Counted from the stretch's first letter, positions 13,051 to 64,000 are shown. The stretch is 64,000 bases of DNA from an uncultured delta proteobacterium (GCA_963743525.1 CAVUQH010000024.1:129763-193762), one strand, 5' to 3'. Notes: generated by a model from the sequence alone, not told the origin. A program made the numbers and translations.

Positions 13051-14385
<1,335 letters not shown>

Positions 14386-14390
14386 CGGTG

Positions 14391-15299
14391 ATGCGCGTGG
14401 AACGCCTGGGACGCTACAAGATCGTGCGCCTGCTCGGCGAAGGTGGGATGGCACGAGTCTATCTGGCGCGCGCGTTCGGCGCGAGCGGCTTCGAGGCGCT
14501 GGTCGCGCTCAAGCTGCTGCGCCCCGAGCTGCGCGGTGCCGGCGAGCCGCAGCGGCTGCTGATCGAGGAGGCGCGCCTGGGCGCCCGCCTGCGCCACCGC
14601 AACCTGGTGGCCGTCCACGATCTGGCCGTCGACGACGGCGCCTACTACGCGGTCATGGAGTACGTCGACGGCGCCGACCTGGCGTCGCTGCTGCGCGCCG
14701 CACCGATCCCGCTCGAGCTGGCGCTGCTGTGCGTCGAGGAGGTGGCGCTGGCGCTCGAGCACGTCCACGCGGCGACCGACGAGCGCGGCCGCCCGCTCGG
14801 CCTGGTCCACCGCGACGTCAGCCCGGCCAACATCCTGGTGTCGCGCGCGGGCGAGGTGAAGCTGGCCGACTTCGGCATCGCCAAGGCGACTGCGCTGGCC
14901 GACCAGACGCTGACCAACGTGCGCAAGGGCAAATACGCGTACATGTCACCGGAGCAGGTCGCGGCCGATCGGCTCGACGCCAGCAGCGATCAGTTCGGCC
15001 TGGGCGTGACCCTGGTCGAGCTGATCTGCGGCCGCCGCCCGTTCGACGGTGCCTCGGTGATCGACACCATGGACAACATCAAGGCGGCCGCGCCGCCGCC
15101 GTGGCTGACCGAGCTGCCCGGCGACCTGGAGGCGATCGCCCGGCGCTGCCTGGCCCGCGACCCGGCCGCGCGCTTCCCTTCGGCCGCAGCGCTCCGCCGC
15201 GCGCTGTCGGACGCCCGGCGCACGCGGACGCCGGTATCGGCCCCGGATCTGGGCGCCTGGCTGCGCGGGGTTGCCTCCGGCGCCGCCGCCGGCGTATGA
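14391..15299 (+). CDS. Hanks-type Ser/Thr protein kinase (soluble, about 300 aa)
   Basis: [18 protein letters not shown] (Gly loop). [21 protein letters not shown]. Start 14391 (alternative 14367). Confidence 0.9.
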
Positions 15300-17237: not shown

Positions 17238-20200
17238 TCACGCGAGCGCCGCCCGCAACCGGGCCAGACTGTCGTCCATGAGCCGGGCGTCGGCCGCTTC
17301 GATGTGACTCGCCAGCGTGTCGGTGTGGCGGCGAGCGGTTTCGCGATCGCCGGCCGCGACCATCGCCTGGGCAGCGCTGCGGTAGAACAGCAGGTGGTTG
17401 AACCGGGCCGAGCCGGCGGCCAGGAGCGCCTGTCCTTCGGCCAGCGCCGCGTCCCGCTCGTCGGCGTCGGCAGTCGCCTGCGCGAGCACGCCCAGCGCCC
17501 ACGGACCGCAGTATCCCATGCCGACCTCGCGCCCCAGCGCCACAGCGGCGCGCGCGCGCTCGACCGCGTCGATCCCGAGCTGCAGCTCGACGCCAGCGAG
17601 CTGGGTCATGAACTCGTACTCGAACCGCGGCATGTCCAGCTCGCGGACGAGCCCCAGCACGAAGGTGATCTGCTCGCGAGCTCCCTCCGGGTCGCCCGCA
17701 TACTCGAGCACGAACGCATGGGTGTGGCGGCCGAACATCTCGCCAAAGCGGTTGCGCATTTCGACCGATTCGGCGACCACCCGTTCCACTTCGTACGCGG
17801 CTTCGGCCTGTTCGCCCAGCCACATCAGCGTGTGCGCGAGCATCAGTCGGTTGGGCACGGCCAGCCGAGCCAGACCATAGGTCTCGCACAGCTCCACGCA
17901 CCGCTCGAAGTGGGAACGCGAGCGGGCGATGCTGCCGGCGCCCCACTCGAAATCTCCGAGCGCGCTGTGGGCGCGCACCAGCAACTCGGGCGCGCCCAGC
18001 CGCTCGGCGATCCCCAGCGCCGCGCGGGCTTCCTCGCCGGACTCGTCGAGACGCGCCATCGAGAACAGCACCGAGGCGCGCTGGTAGCTAATCTCGGCCC
18101 GCTCGCGATCGCCGCCGCCGAGCCCGGCAGCCTGCTCGAGCAGTGCCAGCGCCTCGTCGTAGCGGGACACCGCGCGGTGCGCGGCGGCGCCACCGATCAG
18201 CGCACGACAGCGCGCGAGCTCATCGGGCGCGGCCTCGGCGGCGGTCGCATACGCAGCTATTGCCGCGCGCGCGTCGTCGATCTCGCGCAGCAGGGCGCCG
18301 CGAGTCATCTCCGCTTCGTAGCGCTCGTCGCCCGACGACAGGGCACACGCGCGCTCCGCCAGCTCGCGCGCGCTCTCGTAGTGCATGACCGCGGTGCTGG
18401 CGGCAACGGCATCCAGATAGGCCCGCGCCGCCCCCGGCGCCCCGGCCTGGTCCAGGTGATGAGCGCGCAGCGCGATGTCGCCACCGCCCAACCGCTCGGC
18501 CGCGTCGGCGTGAATCTCGCGCCGCCGCGCTCGCGTCAGCGACGCGTAGACACCGTCGCGGATGAGGGCGTGACGAAACGCCATCTGATCGCCCTGTCGC
18601 CGCAGGAGCCCGCGGCGCAGCGGCTCCTCGCAGTCGTAGTCGCCGCCGAGCAGCGCGCGCAAGGTCGCGCCGTCGAAGCGCTGGCCCAACACCGAGGCGA
18701 CCTGCAGTGCCGAGCGGTCGCGCGGAGACAACCGGTCGAGCCGGGCCAGGATCAGGCTCTGCACGCTGGCCGGCACCTCGCCGGTATTGGCGGTCTCGGC
18801 CGAGGCCGCCACCAGCTCTTCGAGGAACAGCGGATTGCCGCCGGCGCGCTGAGCCGCGGCGCGGGCGACGTCGGCGCTGGCGCCCAGCCCGGCGGCCAGT
18901 GCGCTGGCCGCGTCGGCCGGCAGCGGCGCCAGATCGATCACGTTGACGGCGGCCCCGGACACCCCGTCCCACGGCGCGCTCGACTCGTCGTCCTCGGGGC
19001 GGGTGGTCACCACGACGACGACGGGAGCCTGCGCTGTCGCCCGCGCCAAGCCCGCGATCAGCGCCCGCTCTTCCGGGTTCGCCCAGTGGGCATCCTCGAC
19101 CACCAGCAGCCGCGCGACCTCGCGCGACGCCGTGCTCACCGCGGACGCGGCCGCGGCCTGCCGGGCCATGCGGCGGGCGGCGTTGTCCTGCGCCTGGTAG
19201 CGCTGCTGCAGCGCCTCGGGAATCTCCTCGCCGAGGATGTCGCGCAGCGCCGCCTGATCGGTGGGGCTCACGGTGGTTGCGGCGGCATCCGTGCCGACGA
19301 CGTCGCGGACGAGACCACCGATCGCGCTGCCGGTGTGACCAAAATCGACGAAGCCGGCGCGGTGACAGGCGAACCCGATCGCGCGCGCGATCTCCTCGCC
19401 CTCTAGCGCCAGGCGCGACTTGCCGATGCCGGCCTCGCCGCGCAGCACGACCACACCGCCGCGGCCGCGCTCGATGCAGGCGTCGAGGCGCGCGCGCAGC
19501 CGGGCCAGCTCGTCGGCGCGCCCGACCATCGGCCGCTGCGCCGTCGACCGCCCGGCGCGAAGCCCGCACACACGCCACGCCCGGACCGGCTGGTCGATCC
19601 CCTTGAGCGCGAGCCCGTCGACCAGCTCGGCGTTGACCAGCTCGCCGACGACGTGATGGACGGTGTCATCGATCAGCGTCTCTCCGGCGCCGGCACGCCC
19701 CTGCAGCCGCGCAGCCAGGTTGACGGAGCTGCCGATCACCGTGTACTCGCGGTGGTGCGCGCTGCCCAGACCGCTGGCCATCACCTGGCCGGCGGCGATG
19801 CCGACGTGCAGCCGCAGCTCGAGCGACACCTCGGCGCCCAGTGCAGCCATGCCCTCGTGGACGGCCGCTGCCGCGCGAACCGCCCGCTCGGCGTCGTTGC
19901 CGTGGGCGACCGGCGCACCGAACAGCGCCATGACGTTGTCGCCGATGTGCTTGTCGATGGTGCCGCCGTGACTCGCGACGATGCCATCGACCACCTCGAA
20001 GAAGCGCACCAGCAGGCGGTGCACGTCCTCCGGATCGAGCCGCGCCGACAGCCGGGTGTAGTCGGCCAGGTCGGCGAACAACACCACGACCTGGCGGAGC
20101 TCCCCTTCGGCCGGGCCGCGCAGGCCAGCGCCACAGCCGCCACAGAAGCGCTCGTCCGCCTCATTGACGAAGCCGCAGAGCACGCAGCTCGACGCCAGTG

Positions 20201-20267
20201 GTGCCCCACACTGGCCGCAAAACCGCCGACCCTCCCGGTTCGTGGCCCGGCACCCGCCACAGTCCAT
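17238..20267 (-). CDS. Multidomain signalling protein: double zinc-ribbon, adenylate/guanylate cyclase catalytic domain, AAA/NACHT-like ATPase, TPR repeats
   Basis: CGGCRATNREGRRFCGQCGAPL...CVLCGFVNEADERFCGGCG zinc ribbons. Class III cyclase motifs VVVLFADLADYTRLS...HGGTIDKHIGDNVMALFG. P-loop GEAGIGKS. C-terminal TPR-like helices. ATG at 20267; the 73 upstream codons of the track ORF are likely not coding. Confidence 0.85.
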   Translation of the reverse strand: MDCGGCRATNREGRRFCGQCGAPLASSCVLCGFVNEADERFCGGCGAGLRGPAEGELRQVVVLFADLADYTRLSARLDPEDVHRLLVRFFEVVDGIVASHGGTIDKHIGDNVMALFGAPVAHGNDAERAVRAAAAVHEGMAALGAEVSLELRLHVGIAAGQVMASGLGSAHHREYTVIGSSVNLAARLQGRAGAGETLIDDTVHHVVGELVNAELVDGLALKGIDQPVRAWRVCGLRAGRSTAQRPMVGRADELARLRARLDACIERGRGGVVVLRGEAGIGKSRLALEGEEIARAIGFACHRAGFVDFGHTGSAIGGLVRDVVGTDAAATTVSPTDQAALRDILGEEIPEALQQRYQAQDNAARRMARQAAAASAVSTASREVARLLVVEDAHWANPEERALIAGLARATAQAPVVVVVTTRPEDDESSAPWDGVSGAAVNVIDLAPLPADAASALAAGLGASADVARAAAQRAGGNPLFLEELVAASAETANTGEVPASVQSLILARLDRLSPRDRSALQVASVLGQRFDGATLRALLGGDYDCEEPLRRGLLRRQGDQMAFRHALIRDGVYASLTRARRREIHADAAERLGGGDIALRAHHLDQAGAPGAARAYLDAVAASTAVMHYESARELAERACALSSGDERYEAEMTRGALLREIDDARAAIAAYATAAEAAPDELARCRALIGGAAAHRAVSRYDEALALLEQAAGLGGGDRERAEISYQRASVLFSMARLDESGEEARAALGIAERLGAPELLVRAHSALGDFEWGAGSIARSRSHFERCVELCETYGLARLAVPNRLMLAHTLMWLGEQAEAAYEVERVVAESVEMRNRFGEMFGRHTHAFVLEYAGDPEGAREQITFVLGLVRELDMPRFEYEFMTQLAGVELQLGIDAVERARAAVALGREVGMGYCGPWALGVLAQATADADERDAALAEGQALLAAGSARFNHLLFYRSAAQAMVAAGDRETARRHTDTLASHIEAADARLMDDSLARLRAALA

Positions 20268-20415
20268 CCAGCCCCAGTATACCCGGCACTGGCGCTGTCT
20301 TTGCAAAGGCTCAGGGTATGCGCGCAACCTGCCGTTCCGCCGCGTCGATCCCGAAGGATTTGCGCCGGCGTGCAACTGCCTTCCCCCACCGTGCGCGAGA
20401 AAGGCCGCGGCGGCG

Positions 20416-21737
<1,322 letters not shown>

Positions 21738-21741
<4 letters not shown>

Positions 21742-55912: not shown

Positions 55913-56101
55913 TCAGTTCAGCGTCTCGGCTTCGACATCATCGAGCGCGTCGAAGCTTCCGGTTTCGACGATCGCATGGGCTACGACCCACGTAGCCAGC
56001 TCGGCCGCCACTTCCGGATTCTTCGTGAGCTCGTTCGCGGCATCGAATGCCGCCGCTACGAGCTCACCCAGACTCGCGTGCAGTTTGTGCGTTCCTTGCA
56101 T
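55913..56101 (-). CDS. Small hypothetical protein (62 aa)
   Basis: ATG at 56101 preceded by aagggggcaaagccg RBS. Weak support. Confidence 0.45.
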   Translation of the reverse strand: MQGTHKLHASLGELVAAAFDAANELTKNPEVAAELATWVVAHAIVETGSFDALDDVEAETLN

Positions 56102-56252
56102 CGGCTTTGCCCCCTTGGCAACTAGCTGATGCACACCCCGGGCCAGCCTTTGAACGCGACTCGACGCGGCGCACGAGCCACGCCCACACGCGGCTCGCCA
56201 CATTCAGCTTCGTTCCGTCCGCCTCGTTGCGGCGACGCTGGCCCTGACGCAG

Positions 56253-57884
56253 CTAGCGCGCGCCGGGGATGGGAGCCAGGCGGGCAGTGAACGAACCGCC
56301 GCGCTTGGACACACGGATGCGCTTCGACCACGGCTTGTAGCCGTCCAACGAAGCCGTCACCCAGACGGAGGTGTAGGCCTTGATGGTCGCTCGCGCGGGG
56401 GCGTGGCCGACGATGTCGCCGTCGATCGCCATGGTGGCGCCCGGCGGCACCGACGACAGCTTGATCTTGACGTCGGGCCGCACCAGGGTGACGTCGACTT
56501 CGGCGGGATTGCCTGGCTCCGGTACGACGGTGCGCTCGACCTCTTCGTAGCGCGGATGCTTGATGGCAACCTTGATCGGGGTGCCGCACGGCACCTCGCG
56601 ATCCACCGGTGGGTGACCAATGCGCTCTTCGTCGAAGTAGACGCGCGCGTCTGCGTACGACTTCACGGACACGTGGCAACTGCCGTCGCCTTCGACCGCG
56701 CCCGTCGAATCGTCGGCCGGCGCCGGGTCGGCAGGCGGGTCGGCGACGGCGTCATCGGCTGCGGGCTGCTCTGCGCTGTCGGCGCCGGTGTCCGAGCTGG
56801 AGCCCGGGGCGGTTGCCGGCGGATCGTCAGCAACCTGTGGATCAGCCGCTGTCGGTGAATCGGCCGGATCGGCCGCGACGTCGGGGGCCGGATCGGCGAC
56901 CGCGGGGCGGTCGTGCTCGACCGGCCGCTGCGGGGCGGGCGCCGACTTTGCCGCCAGGAGCGGACCGTCGGACGCGCGCGGGGCAGGCGACACCGCGGCC
57001 ACCTGGTCGCCGCGGTGGAGGTAGAAGTAGGTGCCGAAGATGCCGGCCGCGCCCGCGAGCAGCGCGATGAGCAGATTGGTGCCCAGCCCGTTCTTCACCA
57101 CCGGTTGTGGCGGCGGAACCACCGGGGCGGGCTCGTCGGCGGCCGGCACCGGCGTGGGTTCCGGGGCTGGAGCCGGTGTCGGCGCGCGAACGGCGACCAG
57201 TCGCGGCGAACCGGCCGGTCTCACCTCGGGCTCGTCGTCGCTCCACGGCGCGGCCTCGTCGTCGCCAGCGTGCGCCGCATCGTCACGCTCGGCGGGAACC
57301 GGCTCGTAGTCCTCGTGCAGCACGCACTCGACGAATCCCTCGAGCGTCTCGTCGGTGATTTGACTGAGTGGGTTGGCCGGGAGCGTGTCGCTGGCCCGAG
57401 GCGCCCGCGCTTCCGCGGCCGCCTCGGCCAACGCCTTCACGGCTGCTCCGACGGAATCGCCGCTCGCCGACTTGGCGGCCTGCGGGCCGGGTGGTGGTGG
57501 CGGCAGCGGTGGTGTCGCCGCCATCGCGCGCCGTTTGCGCTCCAAGAGCTCCGCCATCACCTCGTCGCCCCCCGGATCGAGCTTGACGATGTTGAGCCGC
57601 ATCTTGGCCGGCCGGTTGGTGCCGTCGGTCCGCGGCGCCCGCTCCGCGACGATGCCTACCCCGGCAACGATCACATCGCCGTTCTTCAGATGGATCGAGA
57701 AGCGTTGCCGCGAGCCCTTGGGCGGAAGCTCACGACTGAAGACGACCACCGAGTCCGCGTCGACGAACGCCTGGTACGCGTCGAGGAACGAATCCCGATC
57801 CTCGAGCTTCGACACCATCTTGACCACGGTCAACGGTCGTCCGGCTGGCATATCCCCAGCGCCCCCCCGGAGCACTACTTCCAT
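56253..57884 (-). CDS. PilZ-like N-domain / Pro-Ala-Asp-rich linker / TM / C-terminal PEGA-domain protein
   Basis: N-terminal MEVVLRGGAGDMPAGRPLTVVKMVSKLEDRDSFL...FSIHLKNGDVIVAG (PilZ-like beta-barrel). Single TM LLIALLAGAAGIFGTYFYL. C-terminal PEGA-type repeats (KIKLSSVPPGATMAIDGDIVGHAPARATIKA...WSKRIRVSKRGGSFTARL). Confidence 0.7.
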   Translation of the reverse strand: MEVVLRGGAGDMPAGRPLTVVKMVSKLEDRDSFLDAYQAFVDADSVVVFSRELPPKGSRQRFSIHLKNGDVIVAGVGIVAERAPRTDGTNRPAKMRLNIVKLDPGGDEVMAELLERKRRAMAATPPLPPPPPGPQAAKSASGDSVGAAVKALAEAAAEARAPRASDTLPANPLSQITDETLEGFVECVLHEDYEPVPAERDDAAHAGDDEAAPWSDDEPEVRPAGSPRLVAVRAPTPAPAPEPTPVPAADEPAPVVPPPQPVVKNGLGTNLLIALLAGAAGIFGTYFYLHRGDQVAAVSPAPRASDGPLLAAKSAPAPQRPVEHDRPAVADPAPDVAADPADSPTAADPQVADDPPATAPGSSSDTGADSAEQPAADDAVADPPADPAPADDSTGAVEGDGSCHVSVKSYADARVYFDEERIGHPPVDREVPCGTPIKVAIKHPRYEEVERTVVPEPGNPAEVDVTLVRPDVKIKLSSVPPGATMAIDGDIVGHAPARATIKAYTSVWVTASLDGYKPWSKRIRVSKRGGSFTARLAPIPGAR

Positions 57885-57986
57885 GGTCCGCCCAGACGCG
57901 CCGCTGATCAACCGTACGTCTGTCCTTTACGCACTTTCGGTCGAGCAGTATGATCGTGCTCGTTGCAGTCCTGGATCGTCAGGGGA

Positions 57987-58823
57987 ATGCGGCTGCTGGC
58001 GGTGACGATGTGTGTGTTGGTAGGCGCGCCAGCCACCGCGCATGCGGACCGCCACAAACAGGCGCGCGCCGCTCGCACCAATCTGAAAGCCGGCATCAAG
58101 CTGTTCGAAAAGGGCGAGCACGACCTCGCCATCGAGAAGCTCAAGATCGCGCTGGCGCTCGGTGGCGACGCCTCTGCCAACTACTACCTCGGCCGCGCCT
58201 ACGAAGCCAAAGACGAGCTGGCGCAGGCCGTCTACTACCTGCAGACCTTCCTCGACGCCAAATCGCGCAAACACAGGCACCTGCGCAACGATGCCGAAAA
58301 GCGCGTCGCCGCACTGAAGAAGAAGCTCGACGACGCCGCCGATACCACGACCGAGCCAGCGCCCGAGCCGCCGCCCGAACCACCGCCGCCGGCCCCCGCG
58401 CCCAAGCCAGACGTCGCGCCCGCGCCTGCGCCCGTGGTCACCCCCGAGCCAGAGCCCAGCCCCGGCCCCCGGCAGGATCAGCCGCACGGAATGACCGGCA
58501 TGCGCATGGCCGGCCTCGCCACTCTCGGCGCCGGCGTGCTGCTCGCCGGCACCGGCGGCTACTTCGCCTACGTCGCCCACGATCGCTCGAACCAGCTGTC
58601 GGATCTGTTCGCCGGCGGCGCCACCTGGGACAACAGCTACAACGACCTCTACGACCAGGGGAAAGCCGCCCAGCGCAACGCGCGCATCCTCATCGGCATC
58701 GGCGGCGCGGCCGCGATCACCGGCGCCGTCCTGGTCGTTCTCGGCCATCGCGACTCCCCGCCTCCGGTCACCGTCTCCGCCCTCCCCGGCGGCGCAAGCG
58801 TGAACGTATGGTGCGACTTCTAG
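57987..58823 (+). CDS. Secreted TPR-like protein with Pro-rich linker and C-terminal TM helices
   Basis: Signal MRLLAVTMCVLVGAPATAHA. TPR-like helices (AIEKLKIALALGGDASANYYLGRAYEAKDELAQAVYYLQTF). PEPAPEPPPEPPPPAPAPKP linker. Two hydrophobic segments. Confidence 0.65.
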   Translation: MRLLAVTMCVLVGAPATAHADRHKQARAARTNLKAGIKLFEKGEHDLAIEKLKIALALGGDASANYYLGRAYEAKDELAQAVYYLQTFLDAKSRKHRHLRNDAEKRVAALKKKLDDAADTTTEPAPEPPPEPPPPAPAPKPDVAPAPAPVVTPEPEPSPGPRQDQPHGMTGMRMAGLATLGAGVLLAGTGGYFAYVAHDRSNQLSDLFAGGATWDNSYNDLYDQGKAAQRNARILIGIGGAAAITGAVLVVLGHRDSPPPVTVSALPGGASVNVWCDF

Positions 58824-59314
58824 CCAGCTTCTCCGTCGTCCTCGCCACCGCGTGGACGGTCTCCTGCTTCTCGCCCAAGCAGAGCGACGGCACCGTGGCA
58901 TGTGGCGCCGGCGGCGCCTGCCCGCCCGGCTTCACCTGCGCCGGCAACAACCTGTGCTACCGCCAGCCGCCCGGCGTCGACGCCGCCGCCAGCATCGACG
59001 CGCGCCCCGGCCAGGACACCGGCACCATCGATGCCACCAGTGGTGACGACGCCACCATCTTCGACGCCACCTCCGGCATCGACGCGCTCGTCGGCGAGTG
59101 CAACGACGGCATCGACAACGACTGCGACGGCGAGGTCGACTATCCCAACGATCCCGGCTGCACCAGCGCCCTCGATCCCAGCGAGCACGGCACCAAGCAG
59201 TGCGACGACGGCATCGACAACGACGGCGACAACGGCATCGACTACCACCTGGGGAATTGCCCGCTCGGCCCCACCGACCCGCAGTGCAGCGGGCCGAACG
59301 ATCCCCAGGAATAG
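58808..59314 (+). CDS. Cys-rich lipoprotein with Asp-rich calcium-binding-like repeats
   Basis: MVRLLASFSVVLATAWTVSC lipobox. GECNDGIDNDCDGEVDYPNDPGC and KQCDDGIDNDGDNGIDYHLGNC repeats. Confidence 0.6.
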   Translation: MVRLLASFSVVLATAWTVSCFSPKQSDGTVACGAGGACPPGFTCAGNNLCYRQPPGVDAAASIDARPGQDTGTIDATSGDDATIFDATSGIDALVGECNDGIDNDCDGEVDYPNDPGCTSALDPSEHGTKQCDDGIDNDGDNGIDYHLGNCPLGPTDPQCSGPNDPQE

Positions 59315-59339
59315 CAGCTGGATCCCTCAGCGGGCGGAT

Positions 59340-59520
59340 CGCACCGGGCCGCTGCCGCCCAATCGCGTCGTCTTCGTCACCCGCATCGGCGGCGAACAAG
59401 ATTTCCTCAAAGTCCTCGACTTCACTCGTTCGGCGCCATCATGTACTTCCTCTTGACCGGACAGCCGCCCTTCAACGTCGCCTGCGACTGCGACTGGCAG
59501 CCGAGCACGACGACGAAGTG
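59340..59520 (+). pseudogene. Remnant of a Ser/Thr protein kinase gene (internally deleted, frame-broken copy related to the kinase at 62383)
   Basis: Translations NRVVFVTRIGGEQDFLKVLDF and SFGAIMYFLLTGQPPF match kinase subdomains VIb-VII and IX of the downstream paralog (ANLFLTTAGGEDDFLKVLDFG; SLGAVMYFLLTGQPPF). About 45 codons between them are missing, and the two halves are in different frames. Confidence 0.6.
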
Positions 59521-59532
59521 AACCAGCATGTC

Positions 59533-61113
59533 CTATTCCTCGTAGGTCAGCGTGTCGCCGGGTGGCAGTGTGACCGGTATCGTCGGCGACATGCTGCTCA
59601 GCTTGCTGAAGTCGACCTCGCCCAGCGCCTCAGCCACTTCCTCGCAACTCGGGAACCGATGAGCCGGGTCCTTTTCCAGGCAGCGAACGATGACTACTTC
59701 CAGGTCCGTGGGCAGGGGCGCACCGATACGAATGGAGGGTGAGACCAGGGGCTTCGCCCCGTGCGCGCGCAACACCGCGAAGGTCGACTCTGATGGAAAT
59801 GGCGCATCCCCGGTGACGGCGAAGTACATAGTGGCGCCAAATGAATAGACGTCGGATCGAGCGTCCGCCTCCTTGCCCTGAATCACCTCTGGTGCCATGT
59901 AGGACGGAGTCCCTCCGGTCCAGCCCTCGACCGTCAGCGTGGTGGCGGAGCCCGCGGCCATCTTCACGAGGCCAAAGTCGACGAGCTTGACCTGATGGTT
60001 CTTGCCGCCGATCTGGGAAACCATGATATTGCCCGGCTTGACGTCGCGGTGGACCAGCGACATCGAGTGCGCTTCCGCCAACGCGGCAGCGATCTGGCTG
60101 AACAGGCGCTGGGCGAGCGCCGGTGACAGCGGGCCCGATTCGGCCACGAGCTCGCGGAGGGTCTTGCCGCGGATGTACTCCATCGCGTAGTAGGGGAACC
60201 CATCCTCGGTCCAGCCAAAGTCGAATACCCGGATCGTGTTCGGGTGTGACAGACGCGACGTTGCTCGCGCTTCGCGCTCGAACCGCGCCACGCCGGGACC
60301 ATCGAGACGGTTGTGCATGAGGAACTTGAGCGCGACGTCGGTCTTCAAGGAGCGGTCGTAGGCGCGCCAGACCTCTCCCATCCCGCCAGCGCCCAACTTC
60401 TCGGACAAGCGGTACCGACCGATCATCTTGGCCTCGAAGAGCTGGCGCCGGAGCCTCCACGCCGCATCGCTGGCGAGCACGACCAGACCAAGACATCCGT
60501 AGATCCCGGCCATGTCAACGAGGAACAATGTGCGAGTGTCGTGATCCGCGAACTGTGCCGCCACCCGCGGCATGAAGAAGGACGCCACCAACATCGTCAG
60601 CGGATAGAGCGTAGCGGGAATCCCGGAAAGAATGAGCCCCCTCTTCCAGTGGGCCGGAAGTGCCGCGGCCCGAACGGTCAGCACCTGGATCACGCCGACG
60701 AAGTAAGGGCTACGAACTCCACCTACCCCGAGAGCCATCACGCTGATCAGCAAGCCGGCCGAACCGAACGCCACCACGTTGACCGTTACGGCGACCGCTC
60801 GCGCTGGCCAGCGGCGCAGAGTCGCAATCGAGGCAACCAGCACGGCTGCTCCGGCCGCGCGACAAATCAGAAAGAACGAGAGCGGTGCTGCGTCGAGCTG
60901 CGACACGACGATGGCGTCCAGCCCAACGAACGCGATCCAACAACCCAAGCCAATCCGCAACACCTGTCGCAAGCGCAGCAGCTCCCAGGCGAAGTCACTC
61001 TGCTTCGCGGAGCGAATCCGCAAATCGCCGCTGTTGAGCTTGCGCGCGGTCCCGTCCGCTCCGCCGGAGGCCCCATCTCCCACCGTCCCAATCGGCGATT
61101 CCACCGCATCCAT
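59533..61113 (-). CDS. Membrane-anchored Hanks-type Ser/Thr protein kinase (N-terminal polytopic domain, C-terminal kinase)
   Basis: Six or more TM helices, then GRYRLSEKLGAGGMGEVWRA, ALKFL, HRDVKPGNIMV, DFGLVK, GTPSYMAPE. ATG at 61113. Confidence 0.9.
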   Translation of the reverse strand: MDAVESPIGTVGDGASGGADGTARKLNSGDLRIRSAKQSDFAWELLRLRQVLRIGLGCWIAFVGLDAIVVSQLDAAPLSFFLICRAAGAAVLVASIATLRRWPARAVAVTVNVVAFGSAGLLISVMALGVGGVRSPYFVGVIQVLTVRAAALPAHWKRGLILSGIPATLYPLTMLVASFFMPRVAAQFADHDTRTLFLVDMAGIYGCLGLVVLASDAAWRLRRQLFEAKMIGRYRLSEKLGAGGMGEVWRAYDRSLKTDVALKFLMHNRLDGPGVARFEREARATSRLSHPNTIRVFDFGWTEDGFPYYAMEYIRGKTLRELVAESGPLSPALAQRLFSQIAAALAEAHSMSLVHRDVKPGNIMVSQIGGKNHQVKLVDFGLVKMAAGSATTLTVEGWTGGTPSYMAPEVIQGKEADARSDVYSFGATMYFAVTGDAPFPSESTFAVLRAHGAKPLVSPSIRIGAPLPTDLEVVIVRCLEKDPAHRFPSCEEVAEALGEVDFSKLSSMSPTIPVTLPPGDTLTYEE

Positions 61114-61239
61114 CCTGTCAAGGATCACACAGCGGCAGCAAAGAGACAGGGTTAGATTTCTGGCCGATTTTCGCAAACCCGCGCGGCCAGCACTCTGCCG
61201 CCCGTGTGTTACACTGAGCGCCTCCTGCTTCCTCGCACG

Positions 61240-62331
61240 ATGGGCATGCCTGGACGTTCATCTGTTCTCATCGTTGATGACGAACGAGAACATTGCGACC
61301 TGCTGGCGCTGATCCTGCGCCGTCGCTACGACGTGCACACGTCCACGTCGCCGACGAAGGCGCTCGAGATGGCGCGCAGCACCAGCTTTGCGGTGGTACT
61401 CGCTGACTACCGCATGCCTGAGATGACCGGAACCGACTTTCTCTCCGCACTCGCCGAGATTCAGCCGGACTGCATGCGTCTGCTTGTCACCGCGTACGGT
61501 GACACCGGCGTGCTGGGCAAGGCGATCAACCAGGCCCGAGTCTACCGCTTCATTCCCAAGCCAGTGGACCCGGAGCAGCTCCAGCTCGACATCCAGCGAG
61601 CCATCGAACACAGACAGGCGCAACTGGACCTGGGCCGCGCCCAGGGGATGGCCTTGGTCGGCAGTCTCGTCGGCTCGGTCATCCACGACCTGCGAAACTA
61701 CATGGTGGTCCTGCGGACCACGCCCGATCTCCTCGAGGAGGCCGATCCCGAAGGCGTTCGCGAGCTGGCGCACAGGCTCCGGCGAGTCGAGCAAAACATC
61801 GGTGACCTGGTGGAGGAGTTGCTGGCGATCGCACGCGGGCGCCCGCCGCGCTACGAGCTGACACCGTGCAACTTCGAGGAGATCGTCAGATCAGCGATTT
61901 CCCTGGCGCAGCACGATCCACAGCTCGCCCAGCGCGCCATCGCCGTGCAGATCGATGAAGGTCTTCCCGAGATTCCGCTCTCCCGAAGCCGCTGTGACCG
62001 AATGATCGGCAACCTCCTGCGCAATGCTCGGGAGGCGACGGCCAAGGACGGACACATCGCGGTACGCCTCCACAAGGGCCCGAACGAAACTCTCGAGCTC
62101 GAAATCGAAGACGACGGTCACGGGATTGCACCTGAAATCGTCGATCGAATCTTCGACCCGATGTTCTCGACCAAGGCTGATTCCGGCGGCTCTGGTTTCG
62201 GCCTTGCGATCTGCAAGACGGTGGTCGAAGGCCACGGCGGCACGATTTCCTGCGAGAGCCAGCCCGGGCGAACGGTCTTCTCTCTTCGTCTCCCCATGAG
62301 GCCGTCCGCCAGCCCCATCATCAGTGATTGA
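61240..62331 (+). CDS. Response-regulator receiver fused to histidine kinase (REC-HisKA-HATPase_c)
   Basis: SVLIVDDEREHCDL...VLADYRMPEMTG...K (REC). H-box VIHDLRNYM. N-box NLLRNAREA. G-boxes DDGHGI and GGSGFGLAI. Confidence 0.85.
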   Translation: MGMPGRSSVLIVDDEREHCDLLALILRRRYDVHTSTSPTKALEMARSTSFAVVLADYRMPEMTGTDFLSALAEIQPDCMRLLVTAYGDTGVLGKAINQARVYRFIPKPVDPEQLQLDIQRAIEHRQAQLDLGRAQGMALVGSLVGSVIHDLRNYMVVLRTTPDLLEEADPEGVRELAHRLRRVEQNIGDLVEELLAIARGRPPRYELTPCNFEEIVRSAISLAQHDPQLAQRAIAVQIDEGLPEIPLSRSRCDRMIGNLLRNAREATAKDGHIAVRLHKGPNETLELEIEDDGHGIAPEIVDRIFDPMFSTKADSGGSGFGLAICKTVVEGHGGTISCESQPGRTVFSLRLPMRPSASPIISD

Positions 62332-62382
62332 GCCCGGTCGTGAACCGAAGTACGGTGGAGCGCTTCCACCGCCGGCAAGACC

Positions 62383-64000
62383 GTGGCCGACCAGAACGAC
62401 AATCCTGACATCTCGGCGCTCACGTCCACGCTGACGGCGCCGTCCGTCGAGTCCGCTCCGTTCACGCCGCCCCGGCCGAAGCCGAGCCCCGCGTTGGTCC
62501 AAGCCGCGGCGGAGCCCGCCGCCCAAGCGACAGCGAGGGATCGCGCGGGCGAAGCTTCTAACGCTCCCGAGCGCGTCGAGGGCCTGTCGATCGGTCCGAT
62601 CGAGTCCAGCGCAGACGAGGACCACCGGACGAACCTCGCCCGATTCCGCTTCGCGATGGGAGGCGGGCTAGTCGTCTGCATACTGTTCGGTGCGGTCGAC
62701 TGGCTGGTGGTCGCTCACATTCATCCCGCCGCTTTCATACCGTTCCTCACGTTGCGACTCGGGATCATCGCTGCCCCAGCTATCTCGCTGATCGCGACGC
62801 GACGGCTGCCAAACATGTCGCGACGCACGCTCAAGGCGTTCGATCTCGTCACGTTCACATCCGTCGCCGGAATGATCTCGCTGATGTGCGTCTGGTTCCG
62901 CGGCATCGTTAGCCCGTACTACGCCGGAGTCATCGTGGTAGTCGTTTGTCGAGGTGCGGCAATGCCCACCAACTGGCGCTCCGGTGTGCTGTACTTCGGG
63001 CTGCCGGCAGCCACCTTCCCCGGCATCATGCTGACCCTCGCACCGTTCGATCAGCAAATCGCGCGACAGCTGCAGAACCCTCCGCAGTTGGCGCTGTTCG
63101 CCCTGAACACAATCTTCATCGCCAGCTCGCTGTTGCTGGTCATCCTCGGAAGCCACGCCGTCTGGGCGCTGCGCCGACAACTCTATGCGACCCGAAGTCT
63201 GGGACGATATCGGCTACAGAGCCGCCTCGGCGCAGGCGGCATGGGCGAGGTTTGGCGGGCGCATCACCCCGGGATCAAGCGGGATGTCGCAATCAAGATT
63301 CTCCGTCCGGACCGCTCCAACCAGGAGATGGGGATCGCGCGTTTCGAGCGTGAAGTCGCCGCGACGGTCCGGCTAACCCATCCCCACACCGTACGCGTGT
63401 TCGATCACGGAGTGACCCACGACGGCCTTTGGTACTACGCCATGGAGTTGCTCGACGGGCGAGATCTTAGAACGCTGGTGAAGCAGGAAGGACCGCTCCC
63501 GCCACAGCGCGTCGCCTATCTGGCTGGCCAAGCAGCACGTGCGCTTGCCGAAGCGCACGCTATCGGGATTGTTCACCGCGACATCAAGCCCGCGAATCTG
63601 TTTCTCACGACAGCCGGTGGTGAAGACGATTTCTTGAAAGTCCTCGATTTCGGAATCGCCAAATTCTCGGAAGGGGCCAACGACCCAACGTTGACCAGAA
63701 GCGGCTGGCTTGGCGGAACCCCCGACTACATGTCTCCGGAGCTGGTCCTTGGGCATCCAGTGGACGCGCGAACGGACATCTACTCGCTTGGCGCCGTCAT
63801 GTACTTTCTGCTCACCGGACAACCTCCATTCGTCGGCAAGAGCTCTGCCGAAGTCATGAACGCCCAGGTCAACAAGCCCCTGCGCTACCCATCGCATCTG
63901 CTCGGCAGTCCCGTCCCAACCGAACTCGAGGAGATCGTTGTTCGGTGCCTGGCGAAGGACCGCGAGGAGCGATTCCCCGATGCCAAGTCGCTTGCAGTGG
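62383..64000 (+). CDS. Membrane-anchored Hanks-type Ser/Thr protein kinase, paralog of the kinase at 59533-61113; 3' end beyond window
   Basis: GTG at 62383 after in-frame TGA at 62341. Low-complexity N-region, polytopic membrane domain (GIVSPYYAGVIVVVVCRGAAMPTNWRSGVLYFGLPAATFP parallels GVRSPYFVGVIQVLTVRAAALPAHWKRGLILSGIPATLYP). Then LGRYRLQSRLGAGGMGEVWRA, AIKIL, HRDIKPANLFL, DFGIAK, GTPDYMSPE. Not in the ORF track because it lacks a stop inside the window. Confidence 0.85.
   Translation, partial: MADQNDNPDISALTSTLTAPSVESAPFTPPRPKPSPALVQAAAEPAAQATARDRAGEASNAPERVEGLSIGPIESSADEDHRTNLARFRFAMGGGLVVCILFGAVDWLVVAHIHPAAFIPFLTLRLGIIAAPAISLIATRRLPNMSRRTLKAFDLVTFTSVAGMISLMCVWFRGIVSPYYAGVIVVVVCRGAAMPTNWRSGVLYFGLPAATFPGIMLTLAPFDQQIARQLQNPPQLALFALNTIFIASSLLLVILGSHAVWALRRQLYATRSLGRYRLQSRLGAGGMGEVWRAHHPGIKRDVAIKILRPDRSNQEMGIARFEREVAATVRLTHPHTVRVFDHGVTHDGLWYYAMELLDGRDLRTLVKQEGPLPPQRVAYLAGQAARALAEAHAIGIVHRDIKPANLFLTTAGGEDDFLKVLDFGIAKFSEGANDPTLTRSGWLGGTPDYMSPELVLGHPVDARTDIYSLGAVMYFLLTGQPPFVGKSSAEVMNAQVNKPLRYPSHLLGSPVPTELEEIVVRCLAKDREERFPDAKSLAV

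Follow-up and report, generated by a model that had tools for sequence, protein, structure and literature searches.

Bacterial receptor kinases usually begin with the kinase domain, which is followed by one transmembrane (TM) helix and, outside the cell, by a sensor such as PASTA. In this work we analyse a gene cluster in which that order is reversed, located in a stretch of 64,000 nucleotides from an uncultured delta proteobacterium (GCA_963743525.1 CAVUQH010000024.1:129763-193762), hereafter called the window. Two Hanks-type Ser/Thr kinases of this cluster, minusK and plusK, have a six-helix membrane domain with very short loops (the 6-TM domain) placed first and the kinase placed second; they bracket a soluble hybrid two-component protein, REC-HK, and are accompanied by the relic of a further kinase gene, whose origin is the main subject of this report. 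The window kinases have in common with the Hanks-type kinases of Myxococcota the canonical Pkinase domain with all motifs, the abundance of their genes and the anchoring in the membrane (PMC6213207). Membrane domains of six helices are known as hexahelical anchors, dimeric modules for which a regulatory or receptor function has been proposed or demonstrated (PMC4821796, PMC9433096, PMC10904736, PMC12414865), which have been described in Rv1625c/Cya, in mammalian AC5/AC9 and in the diguanylate cyclase ImcA (PMC4821796, PMC9433096, PMC10904736). The output domain of the class III adenylyl cyclases is a nucleotide cyclase, whereas in the proteins considered here it is a Hanks kinase.

The kinase relic and its closest relatives

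The relic is found beyond the minusK stop, inside a 218-bp spacer between minusK and the gene of a Cys-rich protein, and extends from 59333 to 59527 (~190 nucleotides, nt) as four abutting, collinear pieces of one gene (Table 1). With a probability of roughly 0.85, judged from the sequence comparisons given below, we assign it to an old third paralog, termed K-up, that was lost in this lineage and of which the relic is the positional ortholog, and not to a recent duplicate of plusK.

The protein search with plusK identified K560 (P0011, also P0219), an intact kinase of 560 amino acids (aa) encoded in locus L053 (ENA contig k141_1112750), with a near-identical copy in L055 (JGI contig Ga0114931_10044390). 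A second intact kinase used for comparison, K552 (P0007), belongs to L004, a contig of a metagenome-assembled genome of an uncultured deltaproteobacterium. The nucleotide identity of the relic is 89% to K560 (166/186), compared to ~80% for plusK and ~79% for K552. A deletion-tolerant alignment of the spacer, evaluated against 200 dinucleotide-preserving shuffles, yields z-scores of 28 for K560, 12.6 for K552, 9.8 for plusK and 3.2 for minusK (aligning the relic and the two kinases together with MAFFT failed on the deletions and was uninformative; local and deletion-tolerant alignments were used instead). The same ranking is obtained with the relic peptide among 222 family proteins, where P0011/P0219 come first, followed by P0007 and then by plusK. 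In a tblastn comparison VACDCDWQP of the relic matches VACDCEWQP of K560, and the shared states RVV, FVTR, SFGA and PPFN place the relic with K560/K552. At the C-terminus, piece 4 encodes VACDCDWQPSTTTK followed by the stop, to be compared with the terminal residues VACDCEWQPQTTATS of K560 and AACECEWQAGAKAD of K552, while the tail of plusK, ...ALTAFANMPRSYSPAS, is unlike that of the relic. The likeness to K560 runs past the relic stop codon (TGA at 59519-59521) by ~6 nt of 3' flank, and 11 nt separate this codon from the convergent stop of minusK (59533-59535).

Gene order provides a second line of evidence. In L053/L055 a conserved flank is followed by K560, REC-HK and a shortened kinase, K358, and in L004 a pyridoxal phosphate-dependent decarboxylase is followed by K552, REC-HK and a convergent hybrid histidine kinase, HK888; both K560 and K552 precede the orthologous REC-HK and are read in the same direction. 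The window possesses the common flank up to 56148 and then the relic ahead of REC-HK on the same strand, and this combination of flank, place and strand argues that the relic is the positional ortholog of K-up. The duplication that separated K-up from plusK is old, because the two types exhibit only ~65-69% protein identity and are present together in L053.

Erosion of the relic

In comparison to K560 the relic lacks nt 1-1106, and with them everything from the 6-TM domain to the alpha-C helix, including the Gly-rich loop and the VAIK lysine. Three internal deletions separate the pieces that remain: the first (between pieces 1 and 2) comprises 84 nt, is in frame and has removed the HRD catalytic loop; the second (pieces 2 and 3) comprises ~130 nt (129 + 1), shifts the frame and has removed the G of DFG, the activation loop and APE; and the third (pieces 3 and 4) comprises ~171 nt and is in frame. 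Deletion 2 is flanked by the imperfect direct repeats CGACTTC and CGACGTC, and deletion 3 by the imperfect 10-nt repeats G(G/T)CGCC(A/T)GCG and GTCGCATGTG, an arrangement consistent with slippage or illegitimate recombination. The preliminary description had recognized a remnant of two pieces, corresponding to 59387-59423 (plusK 63615-63651, 31/37 nt) and 59424-59473 (plusK 63782-63831, 41/50 nt), separated by a gap of 45 codons with a broken frame. Both pieces are real, but they belong to a series of four, and the frame is indeed broken, but the gap measures ~130 nt in plusK coordinates, i.e. 43 codons plus 1 nt.

The relic cannot encode a kinase, since its start codon, the HRD loop and the segment between DFG and APE have been lost and its frame is broken. 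Over the 57 codons comparable with K560, the differences are distributed 7/6/9 by codon position and the ratio of nonsynonymous to synonymous divergence (dN/dS, with dS for the synonymous term) is 0.61, as opposed to 0.08-0.21 for the intact genes of the locus, which indicates, for a small sample of codons, that the relic is under relaxed constraint. Judged by its homology to an intact gene in the same position, by its lost coding capacity and by this relaxation, the relic is a pseudogene. There is no sign that it was recruited to act as a terminator or RNA element: the spacer has no excess of RNA structure (fold z=-0.10), and a consensus scan of it revealed no promoter-like or terminator-like site. 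A search for more K-up fragments in 56000-59540, in the minusK/REC-HK intergenic region and to the left of the inserted segment described below found none.

Table 1. Features of the kinase cluster and intervals used for distance comparisons. Coordinates without a locus prefix refer to the window.
Feature	Position	Strand	Description
Relic piece 1	59333-59372	+	K560 nt 1107-1146, 35/40 nt; …DRTGPLPPNRVV, subdomain V/VIa boundary; blastn E=1e-7 in a small database
Relic piece 2	59373-59416	+	K560 nt 1231-1274, 39/44 nt; FVTRIGGEQDFLKVL, end of subdomain VIb and VII, before DFG
Relic piece 3	59417-59486	+	K560 nt 1404-1474, 64/70 nt with one 1-nt gap; DF followed by SFGAIMYFLLTGQPPFNVAC, subdomain IX; blastn E=4e-20
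Relic piece 4	59487-59519, likeness continuing to 59527	+	K560 nt 1646-1678 (continuing to 1690), 28/32 nt; C-terminal tail DCDWQPSTTTK
minusK	59533-61113	-	523-526 aa depending on start codon; N-terminal 6-TM domain, C-terminal Hanks Ser/Thr kinase domain
REC-HK	61243-62331	+	362 aa, soluble hybrid two-component protein: REC, DHp region with H-box (IHDLRN), HATPase_c
plusK	62383-64000 (window end)	+	6-TM Hanks kinase, 539/555 codons within the window
Lineage-specific segment	56149-59332		~3.2 kb, in place of the region upstream of K-up and the 5' two thirds of that gene
PEGA-domain protein	56253-57911	-	552 aa, Pro/Ala-rich, C-terminal PEGA domains (Pfam PEGA)
TPR/TM protein	57963-58823	+	TPR with C-terminal TM region (Pfam TPR_16)
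Cys/Asp-rich secreted protein	about 58808-59314	+	
Hybrid histidine kinases of related clusters	L054:4486-7098; L004:12985-15651; L002:2467-5046	-; -; +	6-TM, HisKA, HATPase, REC, (DHp), HATPase
Relic and K560	59333-59527 and L053:1405-1990		89% nt identity, dS about 0.2
Flank, window and L053			95% nt identity over ~120 nt
Flank, L053/L055 and L001/L054	L055:1-136 and L054:1-136		99% nt identity over 136-141 nt
REC-HK, window and L053	61243-62331 and L053:2135-3226		74-75% nt identity, dS 1.16
REC-HK, L053 and L004			dS 0.82
plusK and K358			69-74% nt identity

Kinase loss and mosaic structure in related genomes

All relatives compared here are metagenomic contigs, and L054 serves as a proxy for the region past 64000. 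The closest relative, L001/L054, is represented by two assemblies that are 99.95% identical to each other and show 85-90% nucleotide identity to the window. It is alignable with the window up to 56148 and again from 59515, with nothing in between; window positions 56149-59514 are absent from it and an unrelated segment of 423 bp is found instead. The triad of minusK, REC-HK and plusK, to which the preliminary description had drawn attention, recurs in the same order in L001/L054, whereas the gene orders of L053/L055, L004 and L002 are different, and no single inversion or transposition fits the arrangements of window/L054, L053, L004 and L002. In L002 the minusK ortholog has a hybrid histidine kinase on either side, HK859 upstream and an HK888-like protein downstream, with no REC-HK or plusK adjoining. 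The surroundings of minusK, for which L002:7207-8229(+) was compared with L004:14625-15886, are different in every relative examined.

Kinases of the cluster have been damaged in other genomes as well. The plusK ortholog of L054 (L054:3500-4474) has an in-frame deletion of 603 nt, corresponding to 63271-63873 of the window (residues ~297-497), which removes nearly the whole catalytic core, and retains the 6-TM part and the C-terminal tail in frame. The dN/dS of its 6-TM part versus the window is 0.08, and the gene may have become a pseudogene recently or may still encode a functional membrane protein devoid of the kinase. A frame change was also observed in its low-complexity N-terminal leader. 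In K358 (L053:3290-4366 = L055:3285-4361; P0129/P0222), a plusK-like protein of 358 aa that is identical in the JGI and ENA assemblies, the plusK-like N-terminus and the 6-TM domain are kept, but the sequence is truncated after subdomain IV and ends with ...THPHTVRVFDRDISRSRGSRS before the stop. From these deletions and truncations, together with the relic, it follows that each genome has kept a different subset of the kinases and that the turnover of the cluster is fast.

The distances measured along the locus (Table 1) lead to discordant groupings: K-up joins the window with L053, and REC-HK joins L053 with L004. This suggests that the locus was shaped by recombination or cassette replacement between co-occurring strains of one metagenome, or else that ancient alleles have been retained.

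The right edge of the lineage-specific segment 56149-59332 coincides with the 5' truncation point of the relic. The Cys-rich protein encoded in this segment shows no significant similarity to the small open reading frame of the 423-bp segment of L054. The latter segment contains a block of 64 nt (L054:278-342) that is ~80% identical to a stretch upstream of K560 (L053:162-226) and reads as a lipoprotein-like signal peptide (…LVATLATSSC…); this block may be a further relic of the ancestral K-up neighbourhood.

In four related genomes REC-HK is directly adjacent to, and co-oriented with, a kinase of the K-up type or the plusK type, with spacers of 51-153 nt. Adjacency conserved in this way supports a functional link between kinase and REC-HK within the close clade, as far as gene arrangement can tell.

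Proposed history and alternative explanations

The scenario that we favour is as follows. K-up would have remained intact in related Polyangiaceae-like genomes, upstream of and co-oriented with REC-HK, and would have lost its function in the lineage of the window. Truncation or replacement of its 5' part (~1106 nt) and the three internal deletions (84, ~130 and ~171 nt) would then have followed, at least two of the latter by slippage or illegitimate recombination between short imperfect direct repeats. In the living system of the two 6-TM kinases and REC-HK, the 6-TM bundle would sense a signal of the membrane or lipid phase and thereby control the activity of the kinase, and REC-HK, which is adjacent and probably co-transcribed, would be its likely partner or substrate.

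Several points weigh against this scenario. Only ~186 nt can be compared, and the phylogenetic placement of the relic depends on few sites; the deletion junctions are known from assembled sequence. The dS of about 0.2 between the relic and K560 disagrees with the value of 1.16 for REC-HK between the same two loci, hence more than simple vertical loss must have taken place. L053 begins at an assembly-graph branch, and because the 136-141 nt that it shares with L001/L054 are the overlap of that graph, the evidence that K560 is linked to the flank is no better than this overlap. As to the partnership with REC-HK, a full-length REC-HK-like neighbour within 1.5 kb was detected in one of 49 loci of the wider family in GTDB genomes (L004 alone), so that the pairing is no hallmark of the family, and in the cluster studied here the link is a putative one.

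Among the alternatives, the one that survives best, although we consider it unlikely, is that the relic was imported, i.e. that recombination or horizontal gene transfer brought in a piece of an L053-like K-up with or beside the 3.2-kb segment, and that K-up was never a functional resident of this lineage. The relic does lie at the right-hand edge of that segment, which is absent from the closest relative, and the locus is a mosaic, as the REC-HK distance between the window and L053 illustrates. Its dS of ~0.2 to K560, an estimate derived from about 7 synonymous differences, is also lower than the values of 0.36-0.59 for neighbouring genes between the window and L054. On the other hand, the relic has kept the ancestral position and orientation relative to REC-HK as well as its own stop, its three internal deletions and relaxed substitutions imply a time of residence as a pseudogene, and the 64-nt block found upstream of K560 and kept in L054 suggests that the K-up territory is ancestral in the clade.

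The origin put forward in the preliminary description, a recent local duplicate of plusK that decayed in place, is highly unlikely. Within the window plusK is indeed the best match of the relic, in both segments recognized at that time as well as in the shuffling analysis, and the two are no more than 3 kb apart, in the same orientation. Beyond the window, however, K560 is closer, the tail and the stop context of the relic are those of K560/K552 and not of plusK, the four shared sequence states agree with this, and intact orthologs of K-up are found at this very position in L053/L055 and L004. What stands of the earlier proposal is the presence of a decayed third member of the family; its derivation from plusK does not. 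A chance likeness of kinase motifs, or an assembly artefact (a chimeric or collapsed spacer), deserves next to no credence: the source appears metagenome-assembled and a co-occurring strain with intact K-up is present in at least one other sample, but the z-score of 28, the perfect collinearity and a likeness that reaches into the non-conserved tail and the 3' flank, which bear out the earlier view that the match is more than a coincidence of DFG and APE motifs (z=9.8 already versus plusK), speak against it, as do the 20 substitutions relative to K560 in the case of contamination by its strain and the fact that assemblers do not normally produce three clean internal deletions flanked by microhomology.

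Intact genes of the cluster

Pfam, an alignment that includes the membrane region and the prediction of six TM helices all confirm that two kinases of the same architecture surround the gene with receiver, HisKA and HATPase regions, as had been noticed at the outset. The Pkinase domain (PF00069) is recognized in the C-terminal half of minusK (154.4 bits, 59533-61113) and plusK (150.9 bits, 62383-63999; cut-off 31.7), and residues ~1-230/270 of both proteins match no Pfam model, with no N-terminal family added by NCBIfam. The two proteins are 43.6% identical over 466 aa with the membrane region included, and 34% identical in the membrane region alone. The database entry of minusK (P0221) starts with the GTG at 61104; the complete plusK protein is P0008 (555 aa, 100% identical; recorded on a contig of 422,503 bp from NCBI/ENA), of which the window is short of 16 codons. 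In an alignment of 54 family sequences containing both kinases, all invariant catalytic columns (G285, K305, E324, H398-R399-D400, N405, D422-F423-G424, E453, D465 and R530) are kept in minusK and plusK, i.e. the Gly-rich loop, the VAIK Lys, the alpha-C Glu, HRD, the Asn, DFG, APE, the Asp of subdomain IX and the Arg of subdomain XI are complete. By these motifs both are catalytically complete Hanks-type Ser/Thr kinases, with predicted activity.

In REC-HK Pfam identifies Response_reg (69.4 bits, cut-off 30.2) and HATPase_c (94.6 bits, cut-off 26.4), and the HisKA match of 20.3 bits remains under the cut-off of 26.9, with an H-box (SVIHDLRNY) at the expected place. The receiver pocket can be read in the translation as DD (VDDE), the D of VLADYRMP, the T of LVTAYG and the K of FIPKP, and the N, G1, F and G2 boxes as LLRNAREA, DDGHGI, FDPMFSTK and GSGFGLAI, respectively. 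The protein has no sensor or TM domain, and its histidine-kinase matches in NCBIfam are all far below threshold.

Orthologs of minusK are 90% (L001/L054), 77% (L002) and 61% (L003) identical to it, and those of REC-HK 90% (L001/L054), 80% (L004) and 77% (L053/L055) at the amino acid level; the corresponding dN/dS is 0.14 for minusK versus L054 and 0.10 for REC-HK. Since plusK starts 51 nt past the REC-HK stop on the same strand, the two genes are probably co-transcribed.

Two further Hanks kinases are encoded in the window, one of 310 aa that consists of the kinase domain alone (14367-15299, plus strand) and one of 525 aa in which the kinase domain is N-terminal (20164-21741, plus strand). Both are devoid of the 6-TM domain, and the 64 kb contain in total four intact kinases and one relic.

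The 6-TM domain and its family

Hydropathy and AlphaFold2 both indicate six TM helices connected by short loops, followed by a long helix that leads into the kinase. The helices of the AlphaFold2 model comprise residues 74-113, 118-141, 147-171, 180-193, 198-219 and 233-269. The model of full-length plusK has a predicted local distance difference test score (pLDDT) of 85, with values >90 in the TM region, and the model of the domain alone has a pLDDT of 91.9 and a predicted template modelling score of 0.87. Conserved positions of the membrane domain are R125, G174, S177 (in an S-P-Y motif), G182, R190, W198, Q229 and W261. In the predicted model the domain has the same three-dimensional fold as the anchors of class III adenylyl cyclases and ImcA. 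The profile of the family, compared with all PDB sequences, detects no significant sequence homology (best match 8wcn, E=0.4; 7-19% identity), and the likeness to the cyclase and ImcA anchors is meant as an analogy, of a shared fold that presumably works alike, and not as a claim of family membership.

Among 1.84 billion representatives, the domain profile matches (E<=1e-3) 732 clusters formed at 50% identity. The majority of the 150 top-ranking clusters have ~500-570 aa, a length that fits the layout of a 6-TM domain plus kinase, and the hosts, where the organism is named, belong mainly to the Myxococcota (Polyangiaceae, Kofleriaceae, Nannocystaceae and Haliangium). This architecture is not a rare one, yet it has no curated model in Pfam or NCBIfam, and a literature search for an explicit account of a polytopic domain placed in front of a Hanks kinase returned nothing specific. 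Four proteins from outside the window (P0121, P0123, P0236 and P0259; ~690-840 aa) have the 6-TM domain in the middle of the chain (e.g. residues 345-541), carry only kinase families in their precomputed Pfam annotation and are 46-48% identical to plusK over 83% of its length; they may represent a longer architecture, with an extra N-terminal region before the 6-TM-kinase unit.

According to hhalign (probability 93%, E=2.6e-7, 160 columns), a homologous 6-TM domain also forms the N-terminus of HK870 (L054) and HK888 (L004), the hybrid histidine kinases that neighbour the cluster. The membrane domain of the hybrid kinases contains a G-S-P-Y-Y-A-G motif. The C-terminal half of HK870/HK888 has the layout of the free-standing REC-HK, and this shared REC-HATPase layout, together with the shared 6-TM domain, suggests a domain-fusion link that would join the hybrid histidine kinases, the Hanks kinases and REC-HK.

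Implications and comparison with known systems

As a case of gene decay the relic is ordinary for a kinase-rich cluster, but it is a clean and datable example of bacterial pseudogene erosion, and it corrects the earlier reading in that an old paralog appears to have been lost, with no fresh duplication. It also illustrates the turnover of myxobacterial kinase clusters, in which different paralogs have been lost in sister lineages and deeply divergent alleles are found beside near-identical flanks. A more useful lead is the family of 6-TM Hanks kinases itself, in which a bundle of the adenylyl cyclase/ImcA type occurs also on an adjacent histidine kinase. With it, the question of what the 6-TM 'anchors' sense gains another output domain, and plusK and REC-HK become a candidate kinase/two-component pair.

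One may speculate that the cluster is a dual-output sensory unit, in which one kind of 6-TM receptor, placed on Hanks kinases (K-up, plusK and minusK) and on HK870/HK888, responds to the same membrane signal, and both outputs converge on REC-HK via Ser/Thr and Asp phosphorylation; we regard this as rather doubtful at present. The kinase-less 6-TM proteins of the relatives, for which the dN/dS of 0.08 denotes purifying selection, might persist as heterodimerising regulators and not as dead genes.

The erosion of bacterial pseudogenes by deletional bias is well established and was reportedly described by Mira, Ochman and Moran in 2001. The relic resembles such deletional erosion in its several small to medium deletions, some of them between short direct repeats, in its relaxed substitutions and in the presence of an intact ortholog in relatives. 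It departs from this process in nothing essential; what is unusual is the clean tiling of four pieces with the stop kept, and the erosion of different members of the cluster in sister genomes.

For the putative cross-talk between the kinases and REC-HK, which can reasonably be supposed from the genes, the nearest described counterpart is the Esp system of Myxococcus xanthus, where the hybrid histidine kinases EspA and EspC act with the Ser/Thr kinases PktA5 and PktB8 (PMC4320627). EspC and EspA are the second (141 bits) and fourth (116 bits) NCBIfam matches of REC-HK, against equivalog cut-offs of 1200-1400 bits, and an orthology of REC-HK with the Esp kinases is ruled out by the 141 bits obtained versus the cut-off of 1200 bits. 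REC-HK is also unlike the Esp kinases in having an N-terminal REC domain and no sensor domain. The likeness is that of a myxobacterial precedent, in which Hanks kinases and hybrid, REC-containing histidine kinases function in one pathway (PMC4320627).

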